A stretch of DNA of 64,000 bases from Rhodoferax ferrireducens (lineage in GTDB: Bacteria; Pseudomonadota; Gammaproteobacteria; Burkholderiales; Burkholderiaceae_C), in the NCBI GenBank assembly GCA_002083775.1, contig MTEI01000006.1:62321-126320 (forward strand). The letters run 5' to 3'. The notes beneath the pieces are model-generated. The model did not search any database and was not told where the DNA came from. It saw nothing but the letters and a program-made list of their open reading frames with translations. The translations under genes were made by a program, and so were the position numbers. Each line of letters opens with the position of its first letter. Within the stretch, counting starts at the first letter, position 1. Positions 1 to 44,055 of the stretch are shown here, in pieces.

Positions 1-224
1 GCAATAGCGGCCCGGTGCCTTTGATGGATTTCATTGGCTGTATTGAAAAGGCACTCGGTAAAACCGCCGACAAACGCCTGTTGCCGATGCAGCCTGGCGA
101 TGTGGCCGCCACCTTTGCCAGCACCACCGCCCTGAACGACTGGGTGGGTTTTTCGCCCAGCACACCCTTGCAGGACGGCATCGACTGTTTTGTGGCCTGG
201 TACCGCGATTACTACCAGGTTTAA
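1..224 (+). CDS. NAD-dependent sugar-nucleotide epimerase (UDP-glucuronate 4-epimerase-like), C-terminal fragment; the 5' end is outside the window
   Basis: The frame is open from base 3 (NSGPVPLMDFIGCIEKALGK...LPMQPGDVAATFAS...FVAWYRDYYQV). The LPxQPGDV and WYRDYY C-terminal motifs are typical of WcaG/UDP-glucuronate epimerase family tails. Confidence 0.7.
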   Translation, partial: NSGPVPLMDFIGCIEKALGKTADKRLLPMQPGDVAATFASTTALNDWVGFSPSTPLQDGIDCFVAWYRDYYQV

Positions 225-1630: not shown

Positions 1631-2428
1631 ATGAAACTGCACCGACTGTCGCTTCTTTTGCTCGGCTGGCTGGTGAGCGCCGTGGCTTTGGCGCAAGGCA
1701 GCGCGCCACCCAACACACAGCCGAATGCCCAAACCATGCTGCAAGCCAGCGACGCGGTGCGCAACCCCGACAAACCTTTTGGCGTGACGGTGACGCTGAT
1801 CGAATACCGGGACGGCAAACAGACCGACACCAGCACGCTGGGCAGCTACGCCAAATCGGACGCACGCAGCGGCCAGTTCCGCACCCTGATCCGTTTTGTG
1901 GCACCAGCGCGCGACGAAGGCAAGCTGATGCTCAAGGCCGGTAACGACTTCTGGTTTTACGACCCGGCCAGTAGGGCCAGCGTGCGCCTGTCACCCCAGC
2001 AGCGGCTGATGGGTCAGGCCTCCAACGGCGACGTGGTCACGGTGAATCTGGCCAAGGACTACCAGGCCAAGGTGGGGCTGGAAGAAGAGATCACGGACGG
2101 CAACCGCCAAAAGCGCCGCACCACCCGCCTGGACCTGAGCGCCAGCGGGCCGGATGCCAGTTACAACCGCATCGAACTGTGGGTGGACAGCGCCAACCAC
2201 CAGCCGCTCAAAGGCAAGTTTTACTCCGAGAGCGAGCGCCTGCTCAAAACCGTGTATTACCGGCGCTACCAAAACCAGCTGGGCAAGGAGCGCCCCACCG
2301 AGATGGTGATCATTGACGGGCTGGACACCAAATGGGTAACGGTGATGCGCTACGCTGACTTTGTGTTCCGCGATGTGCCTGAAGTATGGCTGCAACGCGA
2401 CTATTTGCCCAACTTCAAGCCGGAATAA
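1631..2428 (+). CDS. Outer-membrane lipoprotein-sorting (LolA-like) family periplasmic protein
   Basis: Signal peptide MKLHRLSLLLLGWLVSAVALAQG. The body (FWFYDPASRASVRLSPQQRLMGQASNGD...) resembles LolA-like/DUF1329-type proteins. Confidence 0.65.
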   Translation: MKLHRLSLLLLGWLVSAVALAQGSAPPNTQPNAQTMLQASDAVRNPDKPFGVTVTLIEYRDGKQTDTSTLGSYAKSDARSGQFRTLIRFVAPARDEGKLMLKAGNDFWFYDPASRASVRLSPQQRLMGQASNGDVVTVNLAKDYQAKVGLEEEITDGNRQKRRTTRLDLSASGPDASYNRIELWVDSANHQPLKGKFYSESERLLKTVYYRRYQNQLGKERPTEMVIIDGLDTKWVTVMRYADFVFRDVPEVWLQRDYLPNFKPE

Positions 2429-2433
2429 GTTAT

Positions 2434-3714
2434 ATGAAAAAACATGCTCTAGCCCTTATATCTATTGCGTTAATAGCTCCCGTTTTCGCAGCAGATGTCT
2501 CTGAAGACGACGCACTGAACCTGGCCGACACCACGGCCGAGAGCACCAAAGTCGAGACCACCGACTGGCGCATCTTTACCGAGGCTGCCGCTGGCCGCAG
2601 CACCGTGCATGAGTGGCCGCTGCCGGATCGCCATGCCAACACCCAACGCCTGTCGCTGGACCTGCTGTTTGACAAAAAGCTCACCCCCGCGCTGCGCGCC
2701 GTGTTGTCGAACCGGCTGGACCTGAACCACCAACCCGACGCATTGGGCCAGCAAACCGTGAATACCCTGAAGGAAGCCTACCTGGGCTGGCAGCCGCAAA
2801 GCGACCGCGTGCTGGACATCGGGCGCATCAACGTGCGTTACGGCGCGGCCATGGGTTACAACCCGACCGACTTTTTCCGCGAGGGGGCCAACCGCGCCAT
2901 CACCTCGTTTGACCCCAACGCCATCCGCGAAAACCGCATGGGCACCGCCATGCTGCGCGGCCAGACCTTATGGGCCGGCGGCGCGCTGACCGCCATCTAC
3001 GCGCCCAAAGTGTCGGACGCGCCGAACAACGGCGACTGGAGCGCTGACTTTGGCTCCACCAACAACCGCAACCGCTGGCTGCTGGCCGCCAGCCACCAAC
3101 TGGCCGACAACGTCAACCCGCAGGTGGTGCTGTACGGCGATGAGCGCCAGCCGGTGCAGATGGGTCTGAACCTGGCCATGCTGGTCAATGACGCCACCGT
3201 GGCGCATGTGGAATGGTCGGGCGGGCGGCAAAAAAACCTGCTGGCGCAAGCCCTGCCGCTGGCACCTGGCGTGTCGCAAGACGAGGTGTTTCGCAACCGC
3301 GTGGCAGCTGGCATGACCTACACCAGCGCCAGCAAGCTGTCTCTCACAGCGGAATACCACTACAACGGGGCCGCAGTGGACGAGGCGGTGTGGAACGCGT
3401 TACGCACCAGTTCGGTGATGGATTACGCCAGCTATCGGTACCTGGTTGAAGAGCAACTTGACCTGACCACCCGCCACGCAGCGTTTTTGCGCGCCAGCTG
3501 GCAGGATGCGTTCATCAACAAACTGGATCTGACCGCCATGCTGCGCTACAACCTGGATGACGACAGCAAGTTGTCGTGGCTGGAAGCGCGTTACCGGTTT
3601 GACAAGTCTGAGATCGCCCTGCAGTGGCAACTGGCCAGCGGTAACGACAGCTCGGACTACGGTGCCATGGCCCAGCGCCGCAGCATTCAAGCTTTGTTCC
3701 GTTACTACTACTAG
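2434..3714 (+). CDS. Putative outer-membrane beta-barrel protein partnered with the LolA-like protein
   Basis: ORF trimmed to ATG 2434 (MKKHALALISIALIAPVFA signal peptide), 5 nt after the upstream stop. Alternating hydrophobic pattern and aromatic C-terminus ...ALFRYYY. Family not recognised. Confidence 0.5.
   Translation: MKKHALALISIALIAPVFAADVSEDDALNLADTTAESTKVETTDWRIFTEAAAGRSTVHEWPLPDRHANTQRLSLDLLFDKKLTPALRAVLSNRLDLNHQPDALGQQTVNTLKEAYLGWQPQSDRVLDIGRINVRYGAAMGYNPTDFFREGANRAITSFDPNAIRENRMGTAMLRGQTLWAGGALTAIYAPKVSDAPNNGDWSADFGSTNNRNRWLLAASHQLADNVNPQVVLYGDERQPVQMGLNLAMLVNDATVAHVEWSGGRQKNLLAQALPLAPGVSQDEVFRNRVAAGMTYTSASKLSLTAEYHYNGAAVDEAVWNALRTSSVMDYASYRYLVEEQLDLTTRHAAFLRASWQDAFINKLDLTAMLRYNLDDDSKLSWLEARYRFDKSEIALQWQLASGNDSSDYGAMAQRRSIQALFRYYY
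2446..2478. repeat. AT-rich palindromic repeat, copy A (inside CDS, encodes the signal peptide)
   Basis: gctctagcccttatatctattgcgttaatagct is alignable with the reverse complement of copy F (36571-36612). Confidence 0.75.
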
Positions 3715-3737
3715 ATGGCCAGTGCTATATCAAAAAG

Positions 3738-3770
3738 AGCTATCAGCCCTTATGGGACAAGGGCTAGAGC
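3738..3770. repeat. AT-rich palindromic repeat, copy B (covers the last codons and stop of the SLT gene)
   Basis: agctatcagcccttatgggacaagggctagagc has stem agccctt/aagggct. The stop codon of the minus-strand CDS (3750-3752) sits in the loop. Confidence 0.75.
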
Positions 3771-4688
3771 CTGTTTTGGCTTATAAGTAGACTGCGGCTT
3801 GAGGTTTTTCATGACCAGCGACGGCGAGCTGACTTTGCCCTCAAACGGATGGTGCGAGCCGCCAAAGGCGCGTAGCACCCGTTTGACATAGTTGCGTGTT
3901 TCCAGATACGGCGGCACACCTTTGTAGCGGTCCACGGTGCCCTCACCGGCGTTGTAGGCGGCCGCCACCAGCGCCACATCGCCCTCAAAATACGCCAGCA
4001 ACCAGCGCAGATAGGTCAGCCCGCCGCGAATGTTCTGCGCCGGATCAAAGGCGTTTTTGACGTTGAAACGCGCGCTGGTTTCCGGAATGAGCTGCATCAG
4101 GCCCTGGGCGTTTTTGGGCGACACGGCCTGCGGGTTGAAGTTGGACTCGGCGGCAATGATGGCCAGCGCCAGTTGCGGCGCCACCTGGAAACGCGGTGCC
4201 ATCTGGCCCACCAGCTTGAAGATGCTTTTGGGTGCGATCAGGCTGTAGTCCACCGGCGTCCAGGTCGCCATCTGAAGCTCCACGGGTAGCGGCTCGGGCT
4301 CGCGCATGCAGTCAGGCATGTCGGGCAGCACGTCGGCGAATTTGTCAGCCAGACGCCTGGCCGTCTCGATGCCCTGCTCAGCTGCGGCCTGAAACAGGTA
4401 GGCCGCCCGGCCGTCGTGGCGTGGCACACCGCGGCCGTTGGCGTACATCCAGCCCAGGTTGTACTGCGCGTCACGGTCGCCCTGCCGCGCTGCTTCGCAA
4501 TACAAATTGGCCGCCAGCAGCGGGTCGCGCCGCACGCCCTCGCCGTTTTCATAGGCCAGCGCTTGCGCAAACAGGCTGGCCTGCGCCGCGCCCCCCGGGG
4601 CGTTGTCCTGCGCCAAACACGCTGGCGCACACAGTGCACCCGCTAGCAGCGGCAAGCAGAAGGATCGAAGCAGGGACGTTGACAACAT
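3750..4688 (-). CDS. Lytic transglycosylase (SLT domain) with N-terminal Sel1-type repeats
   Basis: Signal peptide; Sel1-like segments YENGEGVRRDPLLAANLYCEAARQGDRDAQYNLGWMYANGRGV; SLT catalytic region AIIAAESNFNPQAVSPKNAQGLMQL...AAYNAGEG. Confidence 0.8.
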   Translation of the reverse strand: MLSTSLLRSFCLPLLAGALCAPACLAQDNAPGGAAQASLFAQALAYENGEGVRRDPLLAANLYCEAARQGDRDAQYNLGWMYANGRGVPRHDGRAAYLFQAAAEQGIETARRLADKFADVLPDMPDCMREPEPLPVELQMATWTPVDYSLIAPKSIFKLVGQMAPRFQVAPQLALAIIAAESNFNPQAVSPKNAQGLMQLIPETSARFNVKNAFDPAQNIRGGLTYLRWLLAYFEGDVALVAAAYNAGEGTVDRYKGVPPYLETRNYVKRVLRAFGGSHHPFEGKVSSPSLVMKNLKPQSTYKPKQALALVP

Positions 4689-4708: not shown

Positions 4709-4788
4709 GATTGCGGATGTCATGCCGGACCTGATCCGGCATCCATGAATGCAGGGTCATGGATTGCGGATCAAGTCCGCAATGACAG
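4709..4788. repeat. GC-rich REP-like hairpin cluster (locus R2)
   Basis: gtcatgccggacctgatccggcatccatga plus tcatggattgcggatcaagtccgcaatgac; each unit is an inverted repeat. Confidence 0.7.
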
Positions 4789-4825
4789 CCACAGAGGTCC
4801 AAAATGGTTCTGCGCCCATGGAAAT

Positions 4826-7151: not shown

Positions 7152-8005
7152 ATTTCACCGACCAACCCGTGGTGATGCCCTGCGCAGGGGCGTCACTGGT
7201 CGGCATCATCTCGCAGCCAGAGCAGCCCGCCACACTGGGGATGGTGATGGTGGTGGGCGGGCCGCAATACCGCGTGGGCAGCCACCGGCAATTTGTGTTG
7301 TTGGCGCGTTGCCTGGCCAGCGCAGGTTTTCCCGTCATGCGTTTCGACCACCGCGGCCTGGGCGACAGCAGCGCTGAGCGCATGCCGTTTGACGCCATCC
7401 ATGCAGACATCAGCGTGGCGCTGGACACCCTGCAGCGCGCTTGCCCCAGCGTGCAGAGCGTGGTGCTTTGGGGTCTGTGCGACGGTGCGTCGGCTGCGCT
7501 GTTGTACAGCGGACAACGCGACGACCCGCGGGTGGCAGGCCTGTGCCTGCTCAACCCCTGGGTGCGCTCAGATGTCACACTGGCGCGCACACGTATCAAA
7601 CATTACTATGCCGGGCGCTTGCTGGAGCCGTCGTTCTGGCGGCGGCTGTGGCAAGGCCAATTTGACTGGCGGACCTCGCTGGCGGACCTGTGGCAAAGCC
7701 TGCAAGCCCTGCGCCCGGAGCCACCGTCCACCCAGCCCGAGCCGTCCTTCCAACACAACATGGCCCTGGCACTGCGCCATTTTCCGGGCCAGGTGCTGCT
7801 GCTGTTGAGCGAGCGCGATTACACCGCGAAGGAATTTCTGGAATGCGCCCAGAGCGACCCAGTCTGGCAAGGCCTGTTGCAGCGCCCACAATTGGAGCGT
7901 GTCGATGTGGCCGATGCCGACCACACCTTCTCCAGAGTCATCTGGCGCGCGGCGGCTGAACAGGCGGTGTTGGGCTGGATGCGGCGTCTGGAAGTGCAGG
8001 TCTGA
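7148..8005 (+). CDS. Alpha/beta-fold hydrolase, exosortase A system-associated pair, member 2 (GxCxG elbow)
   Basis: TTG start overlaps the upstream stop by 4 nt. VVGGPQYRVGSHRQF...RFDHRGLGDS...VLWGLCDGASAALLY. Confidence 0.7.
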   Translation: MNFTDQPVVMPCAGASLVGIISQPEQPATLGMVMVVGGPQYRVGSHRQFVLLARCLASAGFPVMRFDHRGLGDSSAERMPFDAIHADISVALDTLQRACPSVQSVVLWGLCDGASAALLYSGQRDDPRVAGLCLLNPWVRSDVTLARTRIKHYYAGRLLEPSFWRRLWQGQFDWRTSLADLWQSLQALRPEPPSTQPEPSFQHNMALALRHFPGQVLLLLSERDYTAKEFLECAQSDPVWQGLLQRPQLERVDVADADHTFSRVIWRAAAEQAVLGWMRRLEVQV

Positions 8006-8060
8006 ATCACCTGGCCGCAGAAAGCTCTGCGGACACCACCAGCCTGTAAGATGGCTGGCC

Positions 8061-9689
8061 ATGTCGTCAGCCACCTTATTACCCGATCTCATCACCCTGG
8101 CGGCGCAGCGTTGCCCGGAGGCTGTGGCCTTGACCTGCGGCCCGGCGCACTGGAACTATGCCGCCTTGTCGGAATCGATGACCGCGTTCACCTCGGGCCT
8201 GCTGCAGCTGGGTCTGCAACGCGCCGACCGGGTGGGCATCTATGTGGAAAAGCGTTTGGAGGCGGTGGTGGCCAGTTTTGCTGCGCCACTGGCAGGGGCG
8301 GTGTTTGTGCCGATTAACCCCTTGCTCAAAGCGGCCCAGGTGGCGCACATCCTGCGCGACTGCCATGTGCGCGTGCTGGTGACATCGCCAGAGCGGTTGG
8401 CAACACTCGGCCCCATCTTGCGCGACTGCCCGGACCTGCAGCATGTGGTGCTGTGCGGGCGGACCGATCCGCCGCACACTAGGGGTCACTGGGTCGCCCA
8501 CACTTGGCAAGATGTGTCGAGCAGCCCCCCGGCAAATGGCCACCGGGTCATTGACGCCGACCTGGCCGCCATTTTGTACACCTCGGGCAGCACCGGCCAG
8601 CCCAAGGGCGTGATGCTGTCGCACCGTAATCTGGTGATGGGTGCCAAAAGTGTGGCCTCGTATCTGGAAAACCAGCCCGATGACACCCTGCTGGCGGCGC
8701 TACCTCTGTCGTTTGACGCGGGTTTCAGCCAGCTCACCACCGCTTTTCTTGTCGGTGCGCGGGTGGTGTTGCTCAATTACCTGTTGCCACGCGATGTGCT
8801 CAAGGCGCTGGCAGACGAAAAAGTCACCGGTCTGACCGCCGTTCCGCCGCTGTACCTGCAGCTGGCTGCACAGGACTGGCCCGAGGGCACCGGCGCGCAC
8901 TTGCGTTATTTCGCCAATACCGGCGGCCACTTGCCGCGTGACACGTTGGCCAAGTTGCGCCAGCGCCTGCCGCAAGCCAAGCCGTATTTGATGTACGGCC
9001 TGACCGAAGCCTTTCGCTCCACCTACCTGCCACCACAGGATGTGGACCGCAAACCCAACTCGATCGGCCAAGCCATTCCCAACGCCGAGGTGCTGGTGCT
9101 GCGCCCTGACGGCACGCCTTGCGCCACCGATGAGCCGGGCGAGCTGGTGCACCGCGGTGCGCTGGTGGCGCTGGGTTACTGGAACGATGCCGAGAAAACG
9201 GCCGAGCGCTTCAAACAGTTGCCCTTCTCCACGCCAGGCCGCCCAGCAGGCTTGCAATTGCCGGAAGTGGCGGTTTTTTCAGGCGACACGGTGCGCCGGG
9301 ATGCTGAGGGCTATCTGTATTTTGTCGGGCGGCGCGACGAGATGATCAAGACCTCGGGCTACCGGGTCAGCCCCACTGAAGTGGAAGACATCCTCTACGC
9401 CACGCAGCTCGTTGGTGAATGCGTCGCCTTTGGGGTGCCGCATGAGATGCTCGGACAAACTATACAAATCATAGCTACTCGCCCTTTATTCATAAGGGCT
9501 GAAGGCCAAAAAGACTTGATTTCTGAGTGCCGCAGCAGGATGCCCGCCTACATGCTGCCCGCCGGTATTGAGTGGGTGAACGGTCCGTTGCCACGTAACG
9601 CCAATGGCAAAATTGACCGTGCCACACTGGCGTGCGACTGGCTGGCGCACCATACTCATGCCACGCCAACCACAACCTCCGGGAGATGA
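8061..9689 (+). CDS. Acyl-CoA ligase (AMP-forming), exosortase A system-associated type
   Basis: ORF trimmed to ATG 8061 (MSSATLLPDLITLAAQRCPEAVAL). AMP-binding motifs ILYTSGSTGQPKGVMLSHRN, YGLTEA, GDTVRRDAEGYLYFVGRRDEMIKTSGYRVSPTEVE and NGKIDR. Confidence 0.85.
   Translation: MSSATLLPDLITLAAQRCPEAVALTCGPAHWNYAALSESMTAFTSGLLQLGLQRADRVGIYVEKRLEAVVASFAAPLAGAVFVPINPLLKAAQVAHILRDCHVRVLVTSPERLATLGPILRDCPDLQHVVLCGRTDPPHTRGHWVAHTWQDVSSSPPANGHRVIDADLAAILYTSGSTGQPKGVMLSHRNLVMGAKSVASYLENQPDDTLLAALPLSFDAGFSQLTTAFLVGARVVLLNYLLPRDVLKALADEKVTGLTAVPPLYLQLAAQDWPEGTGAHLRYFANTGGHLPRDTLAKLRQRLPQAKPYLMYGLTEAFRSTYLPPQDVDRKPNSIGQAIPNAEVLVLRPDGTPCATDEPGELVHRGALVALGYWNDAEKTAERFKQLPFSTPGRPAGLQLPEVAVFSGDTVRRDAEGYLYFVGRRDEMIKTSGYRVSPTEVEDILYATQLVGECVAFGVPHEMLGQTIQIIATRPLFIRAEGQKDLISECRSRMPAYMLPAGIEWVNGPLPRNANGKIDRATLACDWLAHHTHATPTTTSGR
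9471..9505. repeat. AT-rich palindromic repeat, copy C (in-frame inside the acyl-CoA ligase)
   Basis: atagctactcgccctttattcataagggctgaagg is translated as IIATRPLFIRAEG. Confidence 0.75.
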
Positions 9690-10970: not shown

Positions 10971-11026
10971 GTTGTCATCCCGGATGTGGTTGTCATCCCG
11001 GACTCGATCCGGGGACGCAATGACAG
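10971..11026. repeat. GC-rich REP-like hairpin cluster (locus R3)
   Basis: gttgtcatcccggatgtggttgtcatcccggactcgatccggggacgcaatgacag. Confidence 0.7.
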
Positions 11027-11064: not shown

Positions 11065-13038
11065 ATGACAGCCAAAGGCCATGCATCGGCCTGGCTGGTC
11101 GCTGCAGTCTGCCTGGTGGCGGGGCTGGCGATGGCTGGGCATCATCCTGTGGCGCCCCTTCTGGGCTTGGCGCTGGTGTGCCTGTCCTGCTGCCTGACCG
11201 CCTGGCAGCCCAGGCTTTGGCTTTGGCTGGTGCCTGCCTGCTTGCCCTGGCTGAACTTTTCGCCTTGGACCGGTTGGTTGGTTTTTGAAGAATTTGACAT
11301 CCTGCTGCTGGGCACGCTGGCCGGGGGCTACGCCCGTCTGGCCTGGGAAGCCCGACACGGCGGTGTGCGCTCGCCGCCTTCCCGCACGGCAACGGGGCTG
11401 ATCACGCTGGTGCTGCTGTCAGCCGGGCTGGCCTTGTGGCGGGGGTTTGCTGATGCAGGTGGCCTGCGTTTTAACTGGTTTGCCAATTACAGTGACGCCC
11501 TCAACAGCTGGCGTATCTTCAAGAGCCTGGGCCTGGCTGCCCTGTTCATTCCCTTGCTTGGCCGCGAGGTGCACCAGGCCCGGCAACGCGCGCCAGCCCT
11601 TTTAGCCTGGGGTGTCATCAGCGGTTTGGCGCTGGTGGTGCTGTCCACCTTGTGGGAACGCGCCGCCTTCCCGGGTCTGCTGGATTTTTCAGCGCCCTAC
11701 CGCACGGTGGCGCTATTTTGGGAAATGCACGTCGGTGGCGCGGCCATCGACGCCTATCTGGCCCTGACTGCACCGTTTGTGGTGTGGGCGCTGCATGCCA
11801 CGCGACGCCCAGCCTTGTGGGCGGCACTGGCTGTGCTGGCCGTTTTGGTGGGCTATACCTGCCTGACCACTTTCGCCCGCGGGGTTTACCTGGCGGTGGT
11901 CGCCCCATTGATGTTGCTGGCCTTTTTTCTGTGGTTGCAAAACCACGCGCGCCACGGCCGCAGCGCCTGGCAAGGCCTGCAGCACCAGCGCGGCGCGCCC
12001 GGCTGGCGGCTTAAAGCCAGCGTGCTGCTGTCGGTCACCCTGGTGCTGGAAGTGGTCGGCGTACTGGAAGGCGGCACCTTCATGCAGGAACGCATGGCCA
12101 GCGCCGAACAAGACCTGTCCAGCCGGGTGGAACACTGGAAAAACGGCGTTGGCCTGCTCGACGGCCCGGCAGACTGGCTACTGGGCAAGGGTCTGGGGCG
12201 CCTGCCTGCCAACTACGCTGCCCAGGTGCCGGGCGAAGAGTTTCCCGGTGACGCCAGGCACCAGATGGCGCCCGGGAAGCAGATCGTCGAGCAGTTTGTC
12301 ACGCTTTACGGCCCCAAAAGCCAACCCGAACTGGGGGGTGTTTTTGAATTGACGCAGCGCGTTGCTTTGACGGAGCCTGGGGGTTACCGGGTGCAGATGG
12401 ATGTCCGGGTCAGCGAAGAAACCCGTTTTGAGCTGTATCTGTGCGAGCGGCACCTGTTGTATGACCGGGCTTGCCAGGCGGCGTTTGTGCGCGTCAAACC
12501 CGCCGGGGGCGTTGGCCCCTTGGCCTGGCAGCCCCTGAACTTGGCCCTGCATGGCGACGCCCTGGGGCGCGGCAGCTGGTTCGCACCGCGGCTGAAAATG
12601 TTTTCTATCTCGGTGGTCGATGCCGCAAGTCGTGCCGATGTGGACAACATCCGCTTGACCAGCCCACGCGGGCAGCCGGTCTTGGCCAATGGCGATTTTT
12701 CTGCCGGCCTGTCACATTGGTTCCCCGCAGCGCAGTCCTATTTTGTGCCCTGGCATCTGGACAACCTGTTTCTGGAAATCTTGGTGGAGCGCGGCGCGGT
12801 AGGCTTGCTGGCATGGTTACTGCTGGTGAGTTATGCGCTGTGGCATTTGGTCCTGGGGCGCGCCAGACTGGTACCGCTGGCGCCTTATCTGGCAGCGTCG
12901 CTGATGGCGGTGCTGGTGGTGGGGCTGGTGAGCAGCGTGATGGATGTGCCGCGCGTGGCGTTCCTTTTTTTCATGCTTATATTCCTCTCGATTGAATGCA
13001 CAAGGACAAGCGCAACTGCGCAAGCCAAGCCACTTTGA
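11065..13038 (+). CDS. O-antigen ligase/Wzy_C-like polytopic membrane protein (probable exosortase A-associated O-glycosylation ligase) with a large inserted soluble domain
   Basis: Multiple TM helices, with a ...GKGLGRL ... HLDNLFLEILVERGAVGLLAWLL Wzy_C-type signature. A ~190-aa non-membrane insert separates the two motif halves. Start taken at ATG 11065. Confidence 0.65.
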   Translation: MTAKGHASAWLVAAVCLVAGLAMAGHHPVAPLLGLALVCLSCCLTAWQPRLWLWLVPACLPWLNFSPWTGWLVFEEFDILLLGTLAGGYARLAWEARHGGVRSPPSRTATGLITLVLLSAGLALWRGFADAGGLRFNWFANYSDALNSWRIFKSLGLAALFIPLLGREVHQARQRAPALLAWGVISGLALVVLSTLWERAAFPGLLDFSAPYRTVALFWEMHVGGAAIDAYLALTAPFVVWALHATRRPALWAALAVLAVLVGYTCLTTFARGVYLAVVAPLMLLAFFLWLQNHARHGRSAWQGLQHQRGAPGWRLKASVLLSVTLVLEVVGVLEGGTFMQERMASAEQDLSSRVEHWKNGVGLLDGPADWLLGKGLGRLPANYAAQVPGEEFPGDARHQMAPGKQIVEQFVTLYGPKSQPELGGVFELTQRVALTEPGGYRVQMDVRVSEETRFELYLCERHLLYDRACQAAFVRVKPAGGVGPLAWQPLNLALHGDALGRGSWFAPRLKMFSISVVDAASRADVDNIRLTSPRGQPVLANGDFSAGLSHWFPAAQSYFVPWHLDNLFLEILVERGAVGLLAWLLLVSYALWHLVLGRARLVPLAPYLAASLMAVLVVGLVSSVMDVPRVAFLFFMLIFLSIECTRTSATAQAKPL

Positions 13039-13092
13039 ATTGTCATTTTTGTTGTGATAATGTTTCAAAAATCAAGCTCTTAGGGTTCGTTC

Positions 13093-13659
13093 ATGAAAAT
13101 TACCGTGATTGGCACCGGCTACGTTGGCTTGGTGTCTGGGACTTGTCTGGCCGAGGTGGGTAACGATGTGTTGTGCCTGGATCTTGACCCCGCCAAGATC
13201 AAAATTCTGGAAGAAGGTGGCATCCCTATCTTCGAGCCTGGCTTGCAGGACATGGTCAAACGCAATGTGGCTGCCGGCCGGTTGCACTTCACCACAGATA
13301 TTGAGCGCGCCGCCCCTTTCGGCACCGTCCAGTTCATAGCGGTAGGCACGCCGCCAGACGAAGATGGCTCGGCCGACATGAAATACGTCACGGTTACAGC
13401 TTACGATCCGGTGGCCAGCACCGAGGCCAAACATTGTTTTCCCGATGAGCCCGCTTTGCGCTATGCCGACAACCAGAGCGCTGCTTTGGAAAATGCGGAT
13501 GCGCTGGTGATCGTCACTGAATGGAAGGAATTTCGCAGCCCGGACTTTGCCATGCTCAAGACCCGTCTCAAGGCACCGGTCATTTTTGATGGTCGTAACT
13601 TGTACGACCCAAAAATGGTTCACGACCTGGGTTTTGAGTATTCAGCGATTGGTCGTTAG
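13093..13659 (+). pseudogene. ugd: UDP-glucose 6-dehydrogenase remnant with an in-frame internal deletion (N-terminal ~97 aa fused to C-terminal ~90 aa)
   Basis: N-terminus [26 protein letters not shown]...[19 protein letters not shown] runs directly into VTAYDPVA...[18 protein letters not shown]...[12 protein letters not shown]...GFEYSAIGR. Total length is 188 aa versus ~440-470 aa for intact enzymes. The central/catalytic-Cys region is absent. Confidence 0.8.
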
Positions 13660-13731
13660 ACCATGCCCACCGGTTCAAGGTCCACGACTCGTTAGAAGTC
13701 ACAGATACCGGCCCGAGCTGCGGAGGAAGTC

Positions 13732-15102
13732 ATGATCAAAATTTTCAACCACTACTTTCATAAGCGAACGCTGTTTCAGATCGGGCTCGATCTGCTGCTG
13801 TTGTTGTTGATTTCGCTGATCACCTCCACAGCACATGAAACACGGCCTGCGGCCTTTGGTGTGGGGGCGGCGGTGACGTTCCTGATACTCGCTGGCAGCA
13901 TGATGGTGCTGAGCTTCAGCCTGGGGTTTTACCAGCGGGTTCACAACCGCTCTTTGGGCCAGTCCAGCGCGCGCGCAGTTTTGGCCCTGTTGTGCATGTC
14001 GCCCATCATTTTGGCTTTGTCCTCCCGCTATGCCGATGCCAGGTCGTTCGCGTTGACCCTACTGTCTGCTGTTTCACTTTTGCTGTTGCTGCGCGTATAT
14101 GTGATGCATTTCACTCCGCGCAACCTGATGCGGCAGCGGGTGCTGGTATTTGGTACTGGCGCACGCGCGCGCATGGTGGGCACCGCGCTGCTCAAATCAG
14201 ACCCCAGTGTGGACCTGGTGGGTTATTACGCCGGACCCAACGAGCAAGAGGCCATGGTGTCTGCCTGGGGACTGCTGTCCATGACCAACTCGCTGACAGA
14301 TATCGTCAAGGATCAACAGGTCGATGAAATTGTGGTGGCCCTGTCAGAGCGACGTGGTGGGAGCATGCCCCTGCGTGAGTTGCTGGACTGCAAGTTGCAG
14401 GGCGTCAAGGTGGTGGACATTGCCACTCACTTTGAGCGCACGCTGGGGCAAATCCGCCTGGAGTCGCTGTCGGCAGGCTGGCTGATTTTTGGTGATGGCT
14501 TTGGCACGGGGTGGCTCCGGGCAATGATCAAGCGGCTGTTTGACATCGTGTCCGCCATCATCCTGATTGTGTTGGCCTTGCCGGTGATGCTGCTCACTGC
14601 GGTTCTGATCTTGCTGGAGGATGGCTTTCCCATCCTGTATTTTCAGGAACGCGTGGGGCAGAACGGTCGCCTGTTCAATGTGGTGAAGTTCCGCAGCATG
14701 CGCACTGATGCTGAAAAGGACGGCAAACCACGCTGGGCACAAGCAAAAGATGACCGGGTGACGCGGGTTGGCCGGGTCATTCGCAAGCTGCGTATTGACG
14801 AACTGCCGCAATTGTTCAGTGTGCTGGCAGGTGCCATGAGCATGGTGGGGCCACGCCCGGAGCGCCCCTTCTTTGTCGACAAGCTGACGCAGGAGATTCC
14901 GTATTACGCCATTCGCCACAGTGTCAAGCCGGGTGTGACCGGCTGGGCACAGGTGCGTTACCAATATGGCTCCTCGGTGGAGGATGCGGCCGAAAAACTG
15001 CAGTACGACCTGTATTACGTCAAGAACCACTCTTTGCTGCTGGACATCGTGGTGATGTTCGAGACCATCGGTGTGGTGGTGATGCGCAAAGGCGCACAGT
15101 AG
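13732..15102 (+). CDS. Polyprenyl-phosphate glycosyl-1-phosphate transferase (bacterial sugar transferase; XrtA/PEP-CTERM-system priming transferase type)
   Basis: N-terminal TM helices. C-terminal KRLFDIVSAIILIVLALPVMLL...ILYFQERVGQNGRLFNVVKFRSM...DDRVTRVGRVIRKLRIDELPQLFSVLAGAMSMVGPRPERP. Confidence 0.85.
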   Translation: MIKIFNHYFHKRTLFQIGLDLLLLLLISLITSTAHETRPAAFGVGAAVTFLILAGSMMVLSFSLGFYQRVHNRSLGQSSARAVLALLCMSPIILALSSRYADARSFALTLLSAVSLLLLLRVYVMHFTPRNLMRQRVLVFGTGARARMVGTALLKSDPSVDLVGYYAGPNEQEAMVSAWGLLSMTNSLTDIVKDQQVDEIVVALSERRGGSMPLRELLDCKLQGVKVVDIATHFERTLGQIRLESLSAGWLIFGDGFGTGWLRAMIKRLFDIVSAIILIVLALPVMLLTAVLILLEDGFPILYFQERVGQNGRLFNVVKFRSMRTDAEKDGKPRWAQAKDDRVTRVGRVIRKLRIDELPQLFSVLAGAMSMVGPRPERPFFVDKLTQEIPYYAIRHSVKPGVTGWAQVRYQYGSSVEDAAEKLQYDLYYVKNHSLLLDIVVMFETIGVVVMRKGAQ

Positions 15103-21394: not shown

Positions 21395-21477
21395 GGCTGT
21401 CGATTTTTTTTACAATTTTGGTTTTTCTTCCTCGATTTGATGTGAAAAACCGATGCAAATCAGCAAGTTGTCCATAT

Positions 21478-21494
21478 CGGCACGAAAAGTGCTT
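21478..21494 (+). promoter_or_regulatory. Sigma-54 (-24/-12) promoter candidate upstream of the Tat-protein/PqqD/kinase/NTase cassette
   Basis: cGGCACGaaaagTGCtt matches TGGCACG-N4-TTGCW in GGCACG, spacing and TGC. It lies ~108 nt upstream of GTG 21601 and downstream of the sigma-54 activator gene prsR. Confidence 0.5.
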
Positions 21495-21600
21495 AGTCCA
21501 TCAGAAATCAGCGGTTGCTCGGCATACCTAGCGCCCAGTCCGATTTGAGGTTTTCTTTTTTGAATGAAGTCGCTTATATCGGCGATGCAAAGGAACGGAT

Positions 21601-22218
21601 GTGAGTGATAAAAATTCCCAAATCGATGAGAAAATTTCTGTGAAAGAAAAGCTTTCACCACCCTCGTTAGAGCGTCGCCGTGCTCTTTTTAGAGGTGCAG
21701 GAAAAGGGGCTGCCGTCTTAGGGGCAGTCGTGCCGTTGCATACATTGGCAGGCGAAACTCTGCTGACATTTGATGGCAAACACCATTGCAGTATTTCTGG
21801 CATGCATTCCGGCGTCCACTCTAAAACGCCCACCAATTCACCCGTGTGCGGGGGCTACAGCCCAGGTTGGTGGGGGCAAGTTGAGAACGGAAGCAATCCA
21901 CCAGCGCCGAGAAGAACCTGGCCAGCTCTTCCAGGTGGTCTAACTTACAACTCGCCGACAATAGACACCTTTTCAAAACATACGCTAGCAAACAATCCAA
22001 CACTGTTTCAGGTGATGGCTAGCTCGTTGCCAGGCACGAACTATTCAAGCACCGATGAATTTCACTGGATTTGTGCTTGGTTAAACGCGCTCTCCAATAG
22101 TTTTAACTTTCCCTATACAGGCGACCAAGTGTTGGGTTTCTATCGGTCGGCAATTCCTGGTGTTTACGATGACGCCTTGAAATTCTTCAGTGACTATATG
22201 GAGACACACACTCCTTGA
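21601..22218 (+). CDS. Hypothetical secreted protein with a twin-arginine (Tat) signal; family not recognised
   Basis: GTG start 5 nt after AAGGAA. SLERRRALFRGAGKGAAVLGAVVPLHTLA|GE is a Tat-type signal. The mature part carries HHCSISGMHSGVHS, CGGYSPGWWGQ and WICAWLNA. Low-GC codon usage. Confidence 0.55.
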   Translation: MSDKNSQIDEKISVKEKLSPPSLERRRALFRGAGKGAAVLGAVVPLHTLAGETLLTFDGKHHCSISGMHSGVHSKTPTNSPVCGGYSPGWWGQVENGSNPPAPRRTWPALPGGLTYNSPTIDTFSKHTLANNPTLFQVMASSLPGTNYSSTDEFHWICAWLNALSNSFNFPYTGDQVLGFYRSAIPGVYDDALKFFSDYMETHTP

Positions 22219-22272
22219 AGCAGCTAGGGCCTAGGGGTTACTGATGCCCCAGAGAATCAACTTCTTGTTCGC

Positions 22273-24655: not shown

Positions 24656-26632
24656 ATGGCACTCATCACCTTACTTGACGCCCAGCTGGCATTTGGGCAT
24701 GTCGCGTTGCTCGACCACGCTGATTTTTCTTTGGAGACGCAGGAACGCGTGGGGCTGATTGGCCGCAACGGCGCGGGCAAATCGTCCATGCTCAAAATCC
24801 TGGGCGGCATGGACAAACCCGATGACGGCACGACACAGGTGCAAAACAACACCCGCATCGCCTACGTAGCGCAAGAGCCGCAGCTTGACGCAGACGCTAC
24901 GATATTTGAAGCTGTCAGCGTCGGTCTGGCAAGGGTTAGAGCCCTGATTGACGAATATTCTGAAGGCCATGGCGACCTGGACGCGATGCAAAGCGAAATT
25001 GAGTCGCTGGACGGCTGGAACTGGGAGCAACGCGTGGGTGAAACGCTGCACCGCCTGCATCTGGCGCCCGACGCGATTGTCAGCACGCTCTCCGGCGGCA
25101 ACAAGAAGCGCGTGGCGCTGGCGCAGGCGCTGGTGTCTGCGCCCGACGTATTGCTGCTGGACGAACCCACCAATCACCTGGACCTGGACAGCATCGAATG
25201 GCTCGAAGGCCTGCTGTGCGAGTTCAAGGGCAGCATGATCTGCATCACCCACGACCGCTCCTTTCTGGACAACGTGGCCACGCGCATCGTCGAGCTGGAC
25301 CGGGGCAAATTGCTTTCGTATCCCGGCAATTTCGCCGCTTATCTGCTTCAAAAAGAAGAGCAACTGGCGCAAGAGGCGGTGATCAACGCGCGCGCCGACA
25401 AGCTGCTGGCCCAAGAAGAAATCTGGATTCGCAAAGGTGTGGAAGCGCGCCGCACCCGCGCCCAGGCGCGCATCGTGCGGCTGGGCGAACTGCGTGCCAA
25501 GCACCAGGCCCGGCGTGAGGCGGTGGGCAGCGTGAACATGGATGTGGTCACCGGCGGTGCCAGCGGCAAGCTGGTGGCTGAGCTGACGCACGTGTCGAAG
25601 AGCTTTGGCGAGCGCAAAATCGTTGACGACTTCTCCGCTACCATCCTGCGCGGCGACAAGATCGGCCTGCTCGGCCCCAACGGCGCGGGCAAAACCACGC
25701 TGCTCAAACTCATTCTGGGCGAACTCAAAGCCGACCCGGCACCGGCCAACTCCCCCGCGCCCGAACCTGGCCACAGCCCCTGGGGCACGGTGCGCCAGGG
25801 GGCCAACATTTCGGTGGCGTATTTCGACCAGATGCGCAACGCGCTGGACCTGGACGCCACGCTGGAAGACTTCATCAGCCCCGGCAGCGAGTGGATCGAA
25901 ATCGGCAACCAGAAAAAACACGTCAAAAGTTACCTGGGTGATTTCTTGTTCTCACCCGCACGGGCGAACTCCCCGGTGCGCAGTTTGAGCGGTGGCGAGC
26001 GCAACCGGCTGCTGCTGGCGCGCCTGTTTGCCCGCCCGGCCAACGTGCTGGTGCTCGATGAGCCCACCAATGACCTGGACATTGACACACTGGAATTGCT
26101 GGAAGACCTGCTGCAAAACTACGATGGCACGGTGTTTCTGGTCAGCCATGACCGCACCTTTCTCGACAACGTGGTCACCAGCACCATCGCGTTTGAAGGT
26201 GACGCCAAGTGGCGCGAGTACGAAGGCGGCGTGACCGACTGGTTGGTGCAAAGCAGGCGCGCTGCCGAGCTGGCCAAAGTTAAGGGTCAAAAAGGCCCCA
26301 AGCCCTTTCACTACGAGCGCGAGCAGCTATTAAAGAAAGAGCAAACTACGACTGTTGAGCCCGTCGCCGCCGTGCCGCCAGCGCCCACCGCAGCAACCGC
26401 CAAAACGCGCAAGCTCAGTTTCAAGGAGCAGCGTGAACTGGATGCGCTGCCCGCCTTGATTGCCGCGCTGGAAGCCGAGCAGCAAGAGGCCAACACCCAG
26501 CTCGCCGACGGCAGCCTCTACGCCGTGGACAACGCCCGCGCGTTGAAACTGGCCACCCGCAGCGCACAGATTGACGATGAACTGCTGGCCGCGCTGGAGC
26601 GCTGGGAAACGCTGGGCAGCAGCGCTGGCTGA
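24656..26632 (+). CDS. uup: ABC-F family ATPase (Uup-like), two ABC domains plus a C-terminal coiled coil
   Basis: Trimmed to ATG 24656. Two Walker A motifs (GRNGAGKSS, GPNGAGKTT), two signature motifs (LSGGNKKR, LSGGERNR) and a linker with QEEIWIRKGVEARRTR. Confidence 0.85.
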   Translation: MALITLLDAQLAFGHVALLDHADFSLETQERVGLIGRNGAGKSSMLKILGGMDKPDDGTTQVQNNTRIAYVAQEPQLDADATIFEAVSVGLARVRALIDEYSEGHGDLDAMQSEIESLDGWNWEQRVGETLHRLHLAPDAIVSTLSGGNKKRVALAQALVSAPDVLLLDEPTNHLDLDSIEWLEGLLCEFKGSMICITHDRSFLDNVATRIVELDRGKLLSYPGNFAAYLLQKEEQLAQEAVINARADKLLAQEEIWIRKGVEARRTRAQARIVRLGELRAKHQARREAVGSVNMDVVTGGASGKLVAELTHVSKSFGERKIVDDFSATILRGDKIGLLGPNGAGKTTLLKLILGELKADPAPANSPAPEPGHSPWGTVRQGANISVAYFDQMRNALDLDATLEDFISPGSEWIEIGNQKKHVKSYLGDFLFSPARANSPVRSLSGGERNRLLLARLFARPANVLVLDEPTNDLDIDTLELLEDLLQNYDGTVFLVSHDRTFLDNVVTSTIAFEGDAKWREYEGGVTDWLVQSRRAAELAKVKGQKGPKPFHYEREQLLKKEQTTTVEPVAAVPPAPTAATAKTRKLSFKEQRELDALPALIAALEAEQQEANTQLADGSLYAVDNARALKLATRSAQIDDELLAALERWETLGSSAG

Positions 26633-29580: not shown

Positions 29581-30459
29581 CTAGGGGTAAACCCTTTCCT
29601 CAACGACCTGAGCCAGCACCGGGTCGTCGGCTTCGGGCTGAACTGGCTGCTGAACGGGCAGGGTTTTGTCCATCCAGGCCAACAAATCACGCCACATGCG
29701 GGCCATCTCCGCGCTGCTGGGCGTGACCAGGGCATGGGGCAGCTCCACGGTCACCACCGGAATACCGCGCTGCACGCCGCTGAAATTACCCAACGAACCT
29801 GGAAACACCCCCACCTGGTCCAGGTACAGCCGACCGAGTTGGGTGGGCGGCATCACCGGGCCGTCAAAGTCCAGCACGCCATAGGGCGCATGAATGCTGA
29901 CGATCAGCTGCGGCTGAAAGCGCGCCATCTCGTCATACAAATAGCGCGACTCGGGCTCACTCAGCGGCTTGGGGCCGGGCCAGCGCCGCGGGTCTTTGCC
30001 GGTGCGCTGCTCCCAGTACACCTTGGTTTCGCGTTGCCAGTTTGGGGTGGGAAAGTTGCGGTTTAAATCAACACCGTGCGCGTTCATCCGTTGTGGCTTA
30101 CGGCGCATCAGGCCGTCGGGGTTGAGCACCGGGATGAAGCGCCAATGCGTTTGCAGCGGGGCGGCCTGCGCCATCTGCAACCAATGCAGCGCCACCGAGG
30201 CCGCCGACAACTCGTCGCCATGCATGGTGGCCACCACCAGCACGCGCCGCTGCGCCCCCGCCAAAGCCAGGTCGCGCAGCAGAATGGGGCGCCCCTGCAC
30301 ACTGCGCGCGGCGCTGGGTTTGAGATCGGCCGCGCGGCAAAGCGCCCGTGGCACATTCGGAATTTTTGTATAAAAATCGCTGCAAGCCCATATAGAATAA
30401 GGGCTAGTAGCTATACAAAATAAAGCAAACAGAGCGGAGCGTTTGAACCAGTCATGCAT
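29581..30459 (-). CDS. M14-family zinc carboxypeptidase (MpaA/murein-peptide amidase-like)
   Basis: Trimmed to ATG 30459. VVATMHGDELSAASVALHW...IPVLNPDGL...NAHGVDLNRNFP is the Zn-carboxypeptidase signature. The N-terminal signal peptide is encoded by repeat copy D. Confidence 0.75.
   Translation of the reverse strand: MHDWFKRSALFALFCIATSPYSIWACSDFYTKIPNVPRALCRAADLKPSAARSVQGRPILLRDLALAGAQRRVLVVATMHGDELSAASVALHWLQMAQAAPLQTHWRFIPVLNPDGLMRRKPQRMNAHGVDLNRNFPTPNWQRETKVYWEQRTGKDPRRWPGPKPLSEPESRYLYDEMARFQPQLIVSIHAPYGVLDFDGPVMPPTQLGRLYLDQVGVFPGSLGNFSGVQRGIPVVTVELPHALVTPSSAEMARMWRDLLAWMDKTLPVQQPVQPEADDPVLAQVVEERVYP
30383..30415. repeat. AT-rich palindromic repeat, copy D (encodes part of the M14 peptidase signal peptide)
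   Basis: caagcccatatagaataagggctagtagctata reads on the minus strand as CIATSPYSIWAC. Confidence 0.75.
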
Positions 30460-31390: not shown

Positions 31391-31549
31391 TGGCAAAGCA
31401 GGCGGGGGGGGAAGGCGAAGGCAACGACAAAAGTAAATGCAAAGGCGAAGGTCTGGCGATGTTTATCACACAGTAAACGCCCAGACTTGAGGGGCGAGTT
31501 GGTTGACTGATGTATCAAGCGCCTTGAGTACACCTTTAGACTCAAATTT

Positions 31550-31585
31550 ATAGCTGCTAGCCCGTACTGCTAAAGGGCTAGAGGC
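31550..31585. repeat. AT-rich palindromic repeat, copy E (intergenic)
   Basis: atagctgctagcccgtactgctaaagggctagaggc. Confidence 0.75.
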
Positions 31586-31609
31586 ACTTTTTTCTTAAAA
31601 CAACCTCAC

Positions 31610-34130: not shown

Positions 34131-34173
34131 GCCGTGGCAAGGCCTGCCTGCATGCGCCTGGCCTTCACGTGTT

Positions 34174-34910: not shown

Positions 34911-37574
<2,664 letters not shown>

Positions 37575-40925: not shown

Positions 40926-42194
40926 CTACACCACGCCACGCGCGCGCAACGCGGCGATGTCGGCGGGTTTCAGCCCCAACTCACCCAGCACTTCATCCGT
41001 ATGTTCGCCTAGGCTGGGTGGCGCACGGCGCAGCACCGGCGGCGTGGCGCTCAAGCGCAGGGGGCTGGCGACGGTGTTGACAGTGGTTTGAATTGATATT
41101 TTCTCAGTAGCTACTTGCCCTTTATCTATAAGCGCTAGAGGCTGTTTTATCACTAAACCACGGGCTTGAACCTGGGCGTCGGCAAAGGCTTGTGCCATGT
41201 CGTTGATCGGGCCGCAGGGCACGGCTTTGTCCTCCAGCAGCGTGGTCCAGTCAGCCGTGCTGCGGGTGCGTGTCACCGGCAGCATCAGCGCGATGAGCGC
41301 CTCTCGGTTTTGCACGCGCAGGGTGTTGCTGGCAAAACGTGCGTCTGCCGCCCACTCGGGGTGGCCTGCGGCTTCGCAAAAGCGGGCGAACTGGCCGTCG
41401 TTGCCGATGGCCAGCAGCATCGAGCCGTCCAAGGTGGCAAAGGTCTGGTACGGCGCAAGGCTGGGGTGGGTGTTGCCTTGGCGCTGCGGCACTTTGCCGG
41501 TGTTCAGAAAACCCGCCGCCTGATTGGCCAGCACCGCCATGCCCACGTCGAGCAGCGCCATGTCGATGTGCTGGCCTTCGCCCGTGGTGTGGCGCGCCTC
41601 GACAGCCGCCAGGATGGCGCTGGTGGCGTAGATGCCGGTGAGAATGTCCACCAGCGCCACACCCATGCGCATGGGGCCGCCACCGGGTTGGTCGTCGGCG
41701 TGGCCGGTGATGCTCATCAGGCCGCTCATGGCCTGGATCATCAGGTCGTAACCGGCGCGCTCGGCATACGGGCCGGTCTGACCGAAACCGGTGACCGAGC
41801 AGTAGATCAGGCGCGGATTGATTTCCTTCAGGCTCTGGTAGTCCAGCCCGTATTGCTTCAGGCCACCGACCTTGAAGTTTTCCACCAGGATATCGCTGCT
41901 GGCGGCCATCTGGCGGATCAGCGCCTGGCCTTCGGGTTGGGCCATGTCCAGCGTGATGGCGCGTTTGTTGCGGTTGCAGGCGGTGAAGTAAGTCGCCTCG
42001 GTGGTGTCGTTGCCCTCAGCGTCTTTCAAAAACGGCGGGCCCCAGTGGCGCGTGTCGTCCCCGGCGCCCGGGCGCTCGACCTTGATCACGTCGGCACCCA
42101 GGTCGGCCAGCATCTGCGTGCACCACGGGCCAGCCAACACGCGGGAGAGGTCGAGAACTTTGAGGTGGGAGAGGGCGGCGGGTTGGGGGATCAT
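40926..42194 (-). CDS. CaiB/BaiF family III CoA-transferase (probable glutarate/succinyl-CoA transferase partner of GcdH)
   Basis: LKVLDLSRVLAGPWCTQMLADLGADVIKVERPGAGDDTRHWGPPF N-terminal signature; C-terminal ...LGEHTDEVL; downstream of gcdH. Confidence 0.85.
   Translation of the reverse strand: MIPQPAALSHLKVLDLSRVLAGPWCTQMLADLGADVIKVERPGAGDDTRHWGPPFLKDAEGNDTTEATYFTACNRNKRAITLDMAQPEGQALIRQMAASSDILVENFKVGGLKQYGLDYQSLKEINPRLIYCSVTGFGQTGPYAERAGYDLMIQAMSGLMSITGHADDQPGGGPMRMGVALVDILTGIYATSAILAAVEARHTTGEGQHIDMALLDVGMAVLANQAAGFLNTGKVPQRQGNTHPSLAPYQTFATLDGSMLLAIGNDGQFARFCEAAGHPEWAADARFASNTLRVQNREALIALMLPVTRTRSTADWTTLLEDKAVPCGPINDMAQAFADAQVQARGLVIKQPLALIDKGQVATEKISIQTTVNTVASPLRLSATPPVLRRAPPSLGEHTDEVLGELGLKPADIAALRARGVV
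41108..41142. repeat. AT-rich palindromic repeat, copy G (in-frame inside the CoA-transferase)
   Basis: gtagctacttgccctttatctataagcgctagaggc reads on the minus strand as QPLALIDKGQVAT. Confidence 0.75.
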
Positions 42195-43804: not shown

Positions 43805-43966
43805 GGGTATCTCCAGAAATCGGTGATCAGAAGTTGATCACCACATGCTAACGCGGCTCAGGCGGACGGTAAAACGATTTGTTGTCACTCAGATATGCGT
43901 TTTCAGCATGATTAGCTATTCAAGATAGTCGCAAGATCATTTTGACTCTTGTAGTCAGAGTGGCAA

Positions 43967-43998
43967 CTAGCCGTTATCTAAAAAGGGCTGACAGCTAT
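43967..43998. repeat. AT-rich palindromic repeat, copy H (intergenic, in the gcdH/LysR divergent promoter region)
   Basis: ctagccgttatctaaaaagggctgacagctat. Confidence 0.6.
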
Positions 43999-44055
43999 CA
44001 ATAGCATATTAATTCAATCGCTAGCTCCAGGAATGATGTGTACATTACGCACACC

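Follow-up and report, generated by a model that had tools for sequence, protein, structure and literature searches.

The 64,000-nt stretch of Rhodoferax ferrireducens DNA analysed here (contig MTEI01000006.1, positions 62,321 to 126,320; hereafter the window) carries a short dispersed repeat. One copy of it (copy A) covers the start of a gene coding for a probable outer-membrane beta-barrel protein, another (copy F) the second transmembrane helix (TM2) of a hybrid sensor kinase, and a third (copy D) the signal peptide of an M14 peptidase. The locus thus raises the question of whether a mobile repeat can act as a portable hydrophobic segment and give unrelated proteins new secreted or membrane topologies, as the first-pass annotation of the window had proposed. 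The comparisons presented below show that A, D and F are genuine full-length copies and that they lie on top of predicted hydrophobic coding segments that are older than the copies. Since orthologues without any trace of the repeat have these segments at the same position and with the same length, the repeat added no residues and created no new topology at the predicted signal peptides or at TM2.

Hydrophobic segments under copies A, F and D

From position 2434 the sequence of the beta-barrel gene is atg aaa aaa cat gct cta gcc ctt ata tct att gcg tta ata gct. Copy A overlaps the start codon and codons 1-20, is read antisense to the repeat as MKKHALALISIALIAPVFA, and its T-run furnishes ATG-AAA-AAA. 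Signal peptides and transmembrane segments were called from Kyte-Doolittle windows, inspection of n-, h- and c-regions and orthologue alignments. By these means MKKHALALISIALIAPVFA followed by AD is predicted to be a Sec signal peptide with a positive n-region, a hydrophobic core and small residues at -3 and -1, and the codons of copy A do spell its h-region, as had been claimed. The protein has its closest named relative in Rhodoferax sp. U11-2br. Among the 120 homologues listed (three of them truncated or fused calls), all those with an intact N-terminus have signal peptides that are similar in length. In the Rhodoferax clade (77-90% identity), A-L-A-L-[IL]-S-I-A-L is retained, which is encoded from gct cta gcc ctt in L013 and L078, gct aca gcc ctt in L015 and gct ctc gcc ctt in L001. 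The outgroup L139 (70% identity) is repeat-free at this site (-53 bits with the repeat profile described below). It shares the stop-ATG junction (3 nt vs 5 nt in the window), and 24 codons precede the conserved EDDAL motif vs 23 in the window; the distance from the upstream stop codon to EDDAL is 74-75 nt with or without the repeat (L139 included), the repeat itself being 63 nt long.

Only two segments of the hybrid kinase are hydrophobic, residues 13-31 and 324-342. The latter, TM2, is copy F, read antisense to the repeat and located between the Phosphonate-bd domain (40-282) and the PAS domain (358-471), which bears out its earlier description as the helix between the periplasmic sensor and PAS. 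Its hydrophobic core and flanking basic residues are those expected of a transmembrane helix. From 36612 to 36571, the sequence of the reverse strand is aaa tgg tct cta gcc ctt ata tca att ggg ata gca gct. The 15-mer TCTAGCCCTTATATC shared by A and F occurs exactly twice in the window, at 2448-2462 (+) and 36589-36603 (-), and with up to three mismatches allowed four matches were obtained vs 0.19 expected. Both copies were found where they had been reported, with the exact 15-mer and in the same frame, in which A is translated as KHALALISIALIA; their resemblance is in fact larger than had been noted and extends over nearly the whole 65-column profile.

Through TM2, 55 kinase orthologues, reaching out to Gammaproteobacteria (Nitrincola, Thiomicrospira), align with zero gaps. 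TM2 is encoded by cgt ctg gcg ctg atg gtg att ggg ctg gca gcg gcg in L017 (82% identical over the queried N-terminal part) and by tgg ctg gtg ctg agt gtt gcc acg ctg gcg gtg ctg in L138 (73%). As can be seen, these are ordinary GC-rich codons, in register base for base with the window, and the repeat scores at this site are 4.1 bits in L017 and -44.7 bits in L138 vs 62.0 bits in the window. The ISI tripeptide at copy F is derived, and the changes toward the repeat include the amino-acid replacements M to I, V to S, L to I and A to I. The 98% relative L140 has ggg cta gca gct and a perfect CTAGCCC-N11-GGGCTAGCAGCTAT (GGGCTAG), while the window and the 94% relative L016 share a later C-to-A change (cta to ata). 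In L016 (9184-9244) a ggg-to-gag change in the F copy also places a Glu in the middle of TM2 (ISIEIAAIV). A divergent hybrid kinase gene lies next to the one carrying copy F (37710-39725), and segments of the two genes are 73-83% similar at the DNA level (34964-36083 vs 38556-39687; I1, I2, I5), which makes the two kinases paralogues in their catalytic parts; only the kinase with copy F has the PhnD-like sensor and a repeat-bearing TM2.

Copy D is read in sense as ALFCIATSPYSIWACSDFYTK, and CIATSPYSIWAC is found in the M14 peptidase open reading frame (ORF). The predicted Sec signal peptide is MHDWFKRSALFALFCIATSPYSIWA followed by C, and D, a genuine copy inside a real coding sequence, encodes its h-region, in line with the original observation. 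Most of the aligned M14 orthologues start at a Met equivalent to the 30459 ATG and have a hydrophobic leader whose end is marked by one and the same conserved Cys; in a few called proteins the N-terminus is truncated or extended. Despite many base differences at this site, L016 keeps both the ORF and the hydrophobicity. Since all D orthologues examined at the DNA level are still repeat-like, down to L137 (R. lithotrophicus, 70% identity; P = 6e-9), copy D must be old.

Pairwise codon alignments revealed no gaps inside the repeat region in 13 out of 13 comparisons. No residues were added at A, F, H (a copy in a soluble enzyme, see below) or, as judged from protein alignments, D; of the coding copies compared for length, only G is longer. 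The repeat is therefore embedded without insertions or deletions (indels) in at least four genes of the window (A, D, F and H), and G and J are further coding copies.

The repeat family and its nine copies in the window

The repeat is about 63 nt long and has about 39% GC, the window having 61%. Its blocks are, in order, ATAGCT, 17 nt, AAGGGCTAGAG(G/C)C, NN and a T-run, or in short form ATAGCT-N17-AAGGGCTAGAGGC; an optional GCTAT-N7- block precedes ATAGCT. Individual copies are 63-65 nt in length and 32-49% in GC (mean 39%), and are arranged singly, with no tandem copies. The order and spacing of the blocks are present both in copy A (AGCT-N17-AAGGGCTAGAGCATGTTTTTT) and in copy F (ATAGCT-N17-AAGGGCTAGAGACCATTTTT, preceded by GCTAC-N7-ATAGC). 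A scan of 185,579 species genomes with the pattern AAGGGCTAGAGNNNNTTT retrieved at least 80 loci with 117 matching stretches. About 25 of the 80 listed loci are from Comamonadaceae (Rhodoferax, Giesbergeria, Polaromonas, Simplicispira, Comamonas and Acidovorax), and the full block architecture is present in every Comamonadaceae locus among the matches listed. These loci, together with the nine strong copies in the window, reveal a taxonomically restricted family dispersed in multiple copies. Lineage dialects (GGGCTAG vs GCGCTAG) can be told apart, and at 27 loci in other Comamonadaceae nearly all copies are intergenic.

The embedding of full-length family copies in genes without indels is unusual and, as far as could be found in the literature, undescribed; a search of published papers with the literal repeat sequence returned unrelated primers only. 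The Rfam scan of the whole window produced no match, and a plasmid collection queried with copy E produced none either, giving no sign of the repeat riding on known plasmids. RNAalifold applied to 22 copies returned only a 4-pair helix with invariant pairs and zero compensatory changes. Since no covarying hairpin was found, an explanation of the family by RNA structure was dropped; certain single copies can form pairs individually, and conservation appears to be that of sequence blocks rather than of a covarying hairpin.

A 65-column profile was created from 26 intergenic copies, all from other Comamonadaceae genera, and contains about 56 bits of information (0.86 bits per position). The nhmmer search of the window with this foreign-copy profile retrieved nine copies (Table 1), six of which are inside ORFs whose frames run on into conserved protein motifs. 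The left half of the profile is independent of the pattern used for collecting the copies and was ranked among about 128,000 window positions. Since A and F rank high on this half, they are full-length copies and not half-sites. A repeat listing of the window places 3729-3767, 30369-30407, 31543-31581 and 36564-36602 in one family (D4) and pairs A with F over 55 nt (73% complementary; I7). It also pairs A with B as 50-nt inverted sequences (2430-2479 and 3737-3786, 72% complementary; I8) that bracket the whole beta-barrel gene; the site of copy B is occupied at the same position in L013 and L015.

Table 1. Positions of the repeat copies and of the genes at copies A, D and F; PWM, position weight matrix
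Feature	Position	Strand	Location or description	Profile match	PWM score (bits)	Left-half rank
Copy A	2428..2492	- (canonical orientation)	Start of beta-barrel gene	E = 3.3e-11, model positions 2-64	63.6	9
Copy B	3724..3788	+	Intergenic, directly past beta-barrel stop codon	E = 6.9e-11		13
Copy H	9459..9523	+	In AMP-binding ORF 7899-9689	E = 2.3e-6		1
Copy J	26278..26342	-	In ABC-F (Uup-like) ORF 24599-26632	E = 3.8e-8		5
Copy D	30362..30426	-	In M14 peptidase signal peptide and first mature residues	E = 1.6e-4	47.8	2
Copy E	31538..31602	+	Intergenic; top profile match in window	E = 7e-15	72.2	3
Copy F	36559..36623	+	In hybrid kinase gene	E = 5e-11, model positions 1-61		4
Copy G	41095..41159	+	In family III CoA-transferase ORF 40926-42194	E = 1.2e-9		6
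Copy I	43946..44010	-	Weaker; intergenic between divergent genes	E = 5e-3		7
Beta-barrel gene	2434..3714	+	426 aa, secreted, probably outer-membrane beta-barrel; no Pfam hit; follows TP_0789-like gene			
M14 peptidase gene (MpaA-like)	29581..30459	-	Pfam PF00246, NCBIfam MpaA; start taken as ATG at 30459			
Hybrid sensor kinase gene	34911..37574	-	Periplasmic PhnD-like domain, TM2, PAS, HisKA, HATPase, receiver			

The match of coding sequence to the repeat is a property of the DNA and not of the protein. With amino acids fixed and synonymous codons drawn from the window's own usage, copy A scores 57.5 of a possible 62.5 bits (P = 7e-13), copy F 62.0 of 62.6 bits (P = 6e-17) and copy D 47.8 of 48.9 bits (P = 1e-13); for copy H, P = 2e-13. 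When synonymous codons were used uniformly, P for A, F and D was still 1e-7 to 3e-10. Coding sites scoring above 30, 20, 10 and 0 bits number 5, 7, 9 and 10, compared to 0.04, 0.28, 0.62 and 1.2 in synonymous-codon shuffles, and weaker, partial matches contribute to this excess. The mean GC content at third codon positions (GC3) of hydrophobic 15-residue windows is 0.778 vs 0.770 for all others, so AT-rich codons are not normal for transmembrane and signal segments here, and the idea that such segments are generally AT-rich at third positions (AT3-rich) was rejected. The repeat patches are GC3 outliers, and most of the longest low-GC3 patches inside genes coincide with copies. When conservation at third positions was compared between the repeat and the sequence outside it, purifying selection was not clearly indicated, the shared GC3 bias setting a high baseline.

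The antisense reading of the repeat has one stop-free frame, which yields (K)K-x-A-L-A-L-I...A-A-I, and one sense frame yields I-A-T-S-P. Copy H belongs to the C-terminal domain of an AMP-binding (acyl-CoA synthetase-like) enzyme, where its sense reading is TIQIIATRPLFIRAEGQKD, and is followed in the same frame by the conserved P-R-N-A-N-G-K-I-D-R motif. Its length differs from that of PDB homologues by no more than 1-2 residues; the right half of this copy, which is present in L015 too, is degraded and lacks the T-run. Copy G, read antisense as VIKQPLALIDKGQVATEKIS, is in a loop of the family III CoA-transferase that is about 12 aa longer than in homologues about 50% identical and in aligned PDB chains, G being alone in this among the coding copies compared for length; the loop is even longer in a 77% relative. 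Copy J reads GQKGPKPFHYEREQLLKK in a linker of the ABC-F protein, and its core TAG is mutated to AAG, as its frame demands. Both G and J are also found in L016. Three frames are thus used, LALI (A, F and G; antisense), IAT[S/R]P (D and H; sense) and KPF (J), and three of the six ORF copies (H, G and J) occupy non-hydrophobic stretches of soluble proteins, so that the "LALISI module" of the first-pass annotation does not describe the family. The other three are in signal or transmembrane segments, vs 3.7% of 15-residue coding windows with a Kyte-Doolittle mean of at least 1.6 (binomial estimate about 1e-3). This fits hydrophobic segments being tolerant, favoured hosts of the repeat and not its products.

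The right halves of the sense coding copies are degraded (2.6 bits for H and 19.5 bits for D), whereas the antisense coding copies A, J, F and G retain right halves with the T-run (25.8-42.5 bits). Numbers being small, the contrast may fit selection against a terminator-like right half within the transcript. Weaker partial profile matches inside ORFs (24896-24960, 61102-61166, 17958-18022 and 48176-48240; 22 to -5 bits) could be decayed copies or proto-sites. The region of copy E, downstream of a flavin reductase gene, is an unusually repeat-dense intergenic stretch: two long inverted repeats, one nested in the other, enclose the copy (59 nt at 88% and 55 nt at 87%; I3, I6; region 31245-31761), which is followed by a 12-nt tandem array, CCTGCATGACAT, of about six copies (D7, 31884-31955).

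Elsewhere in the window, a 2619-aa ORF (52172-60031, - strand) with internal repeats of about 390 nt (D3, D6, D14) has the appearance of a large repetitive surface protein. The GC content is lowered to 0.52-0.56 at 21001-25000 and 13001-14000 vs about 0.62 elsewhere; these stretches may be recently acquired or differently constrained.

How the repeat may have entered coding sequences

Our best reading of these data is length-neutral overprinting of permissive coding segments by templated patch replacement, which we consider about evenly balanced between being right and wrong. The repeat sequence would enter a site by a length-neutral event, in which a short patch is replaced, in a gene-conversion-like manner, by template from another repeat copy; selection would then retain only replacements that the protein tolerates. 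The KK-x-ALALI and IATSP peptides would be acceptable in h-regions, transmembrane helices and surface strands or loops, and coding copies would survive there. Templated replacement is favoured over point-by-point convergence because the motif carries about 56 bits, because L140 shows a fully canonical copy and not an intermediate, because A and F share the low-information, non-consensus loop CAAT[T/A]GATAT, and because the changes toward the repeat at F include amino-acid replacements.

Several points weigh against overprinting. We know of no bacterial mechanism for the replacement of about 60 nt where the prior identity is only about 64%, and no donor copy with an identical loop was found in the 64 kb of genome. 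The polarity at F rests on two outgroups, and L017 and L138 could each have lost an older copy, in parallel, by amelioration toward GC. The amino acids of L017 could encode a 56.7-bit repeat copy; its TM2 may represent a very favourable proto-site or else a decayed copy, both being compatible with the data. At D, no pre-repeat state was seen among the orthologues examined at the DNA level. Given the roughly 12 extra residues of G, true insertion may also occur in the family, and the high coding fraction (six of nine copies) may be special to this lineage or window.

One can instead imagine that a functional DNA motif, protein-binding or uptake-like, was built by point substitutions under selection or molecular drive wherever the protein tolerated it. 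Such convergence, which we consider unlikely, agrees with copies being length-neutral, frame-restricted and in poorly constrained residues, as are uptake sequences in coding DNA (PMC2817400), and with blocks that are conserved across genera without RNA covariation. It also agrees with persistence at orthologous sites (A throughout the Rhodoferax clade, B in three genomes and D in every orthologue examined) and with the coding excess of weaker partial matches. However, about 56 bits over 65 columns is far above known uptake cores, and six base-by-base builds in 64 kb are implausible. Convergence also leaves unexplained the non-consensus loop bases shared by A and F and the canonical, not intermediate, state of L140. 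In addition, the density is only about one copy per 7 kb, and no competence or binding protein is known.

A somewhat smaller probability is assigned to an old in-frame insertion of about 21 residues, as in Rickettsia palindromic elements (RPEs), that was followed by deletions under selection restoring the length, with no net indel. The extra loop residues of G, with the longer loop in the 77% relative, indicate that insertion into coding DNA may occur, and in-frame intragenic palindromic elements are known in Rickettsia (PMC10969869). Nevertheless, such a history calls for independent and almost exactly compensating deletions at A, F and H (and D), with register restored on both sides. Moreover, 13 of the 21 F residues agree with those at the corresponding positions of L017; had the original codons been deleted, this would not be expected.

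The proposal with which we started, that a mobile repeat inserted into or before genes supplied ready-made hydrophobic segments and thereby new signal peptides or transmembrane helices, is contradicted by the orthologue comparison and now seems very improbable. It is true that the copies are real and do encode h-regions and TM2, that the antisense KK-x-ALALI is a natural n- plus h-region, and that the T-run provides ATG-AAA-AAA at A. However, orthologues already carry the segment with the same length and in the same place, with zero gaps in the repeat region; the locus spacing at A is unchanged; where relatives lacking the element were aligned (L017, L138 and L139), the same helix or signal peptide is already there in ordinary codons; and the repeat is also found in soluble segments and in other frames.

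Chance, i.e., an accidental resemblance of AT-rich rare codons of signal peptides and transmembrane helices to an AT-rich repeat, can be practically discounted: the 18-nt right-half pattern does arise by chance in signal peptides of Psychrobacter (L070) and Legionella (L073), and gene 5' ends tend to be AT3-richer, but conditional P values of 1e-13 to 1e-17 (1e-7 to 1e-10 with uniform codons), the absence of AT3-richness from hydrophobic windows of this genome (0.778 vs 0.770) and full-length matches with the correct 17-nt spacing and an independent left half all speak against it. The chance right-half signal peptides of L070 and L073, such as MKLNKIALALVAVAAAP and KVALALIFFSALPTFTWA, indicate that K-x-A-L-A-L coding and the right half of the repeat overlap in sequence space. 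Another candidate for a repeat-encoded signal peptide, ATGAAAAAAATGGCTCTAGCCC of L034, was rejected since its ORF is only 42 aa long.

We tentatively extend the overprinting reading, at well below even chance, to the family: the repeat would propagate into coding DNA and persist there by overwriting about 60 nt without altering the length; hydrophobic segments, like surface strands or loops, would be tolerant landing sites. If true, this would be a mode of propagation, and of localised turnover of protein sequence, not described for repetitive extragenic palindromic (REP) sequences, MITEs (miniature transposable elements with inverted repeats) or RPEs. If intragenic copies arise without indels, repeat families can remodel coding DNA in a way that insertion-based annotation and indel-based element searches would not see. 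The copies also present a case of dual constraint, in which one stretch of DNA conforms to a consensus of about 56 bits and encodes a working signal peptide, transmembrane helix or enzyme strand. For annotation, a repeat inside a hydrophobic segment should not be taken as evidence of newly acquired topology.

Comparison with known repeats and uptake sequences

REP and REPIN elements are short imperfect palindromes, present in hundreds of copies, mobilised by RAYT transposases, extragenic by definition and hairpin-dependent. The first two features are shared by the repeat described here, as is a mostly intergenic location, often just downstream of genes. It differs in that six of nine window copies are in ORFs and that no covarying hairpin is seen across genera.

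The beta-proteobacterial repeat element (BRE; Hot et al. 2011, PMC3110155) is likewise dispersed. It is reported from Rhodoferax, Polaromonas, Acidovorax and Delftia and shares bacterial families with the present repeat, some of its copies being "entirely within coding sequences" (PMC3110155). Since BRE are 75-91 bp long, 64-79% in GC and often tandem, while copies here are 63 nt long, about 39% in GC and single, identity with BRE was rejected on the published description (PMC3110155). A second, GC-rich repeat family is scattered intergenically in the window, at 263-309, 4714-4792, 10987-11013, 31116-31142, 34169-34245, 42528-42564 and 63011-63050 (e.g., GGGTCATGGATTGCGGGTC...GCCCGCAATGACA and TGGTTGTCATCCCGGAC...GATCCGGG; families D9, D15, I4, I12, I14). 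By composition, this family may be nearer to BRE than the AT-rich one.

To our knowledge, neither competence nor uptake bias has been described for these bacteria. Uptake signal and DNA uptake sequences (USS/DUS) in coding regions were analysed by Findlay and Redfield 2009 (PMC2817400). Like them, the coding copies are length-neutral and located in compatible frames at poorly conserved residues; both types are frequent, too, in terminator-like surroundings between genes, and in both the dialect differs from lineage to lineage. However, USS/DUS cores are 9-12 nt long and occur about once per kb, compared to about 63 nt (about 56 bits) and one per 7 kb here.

RPEs are in-frame insertions that add a peptide inside unrelated genes (PMC10969869). 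Both they and the repeat of the window are short, dispersed and palindromic, and are found in frame in unrelated coding genes at positions that the fold tolerates. RPEs, however, are about 150 bp long and add their own conserved peptide in one frame, whereas the 63-nt repeat added none at A, F, H and (judging by protein alignments) D and, with no fixed peptide of its own, overlies pre-existing segments in three frames and both orientations.

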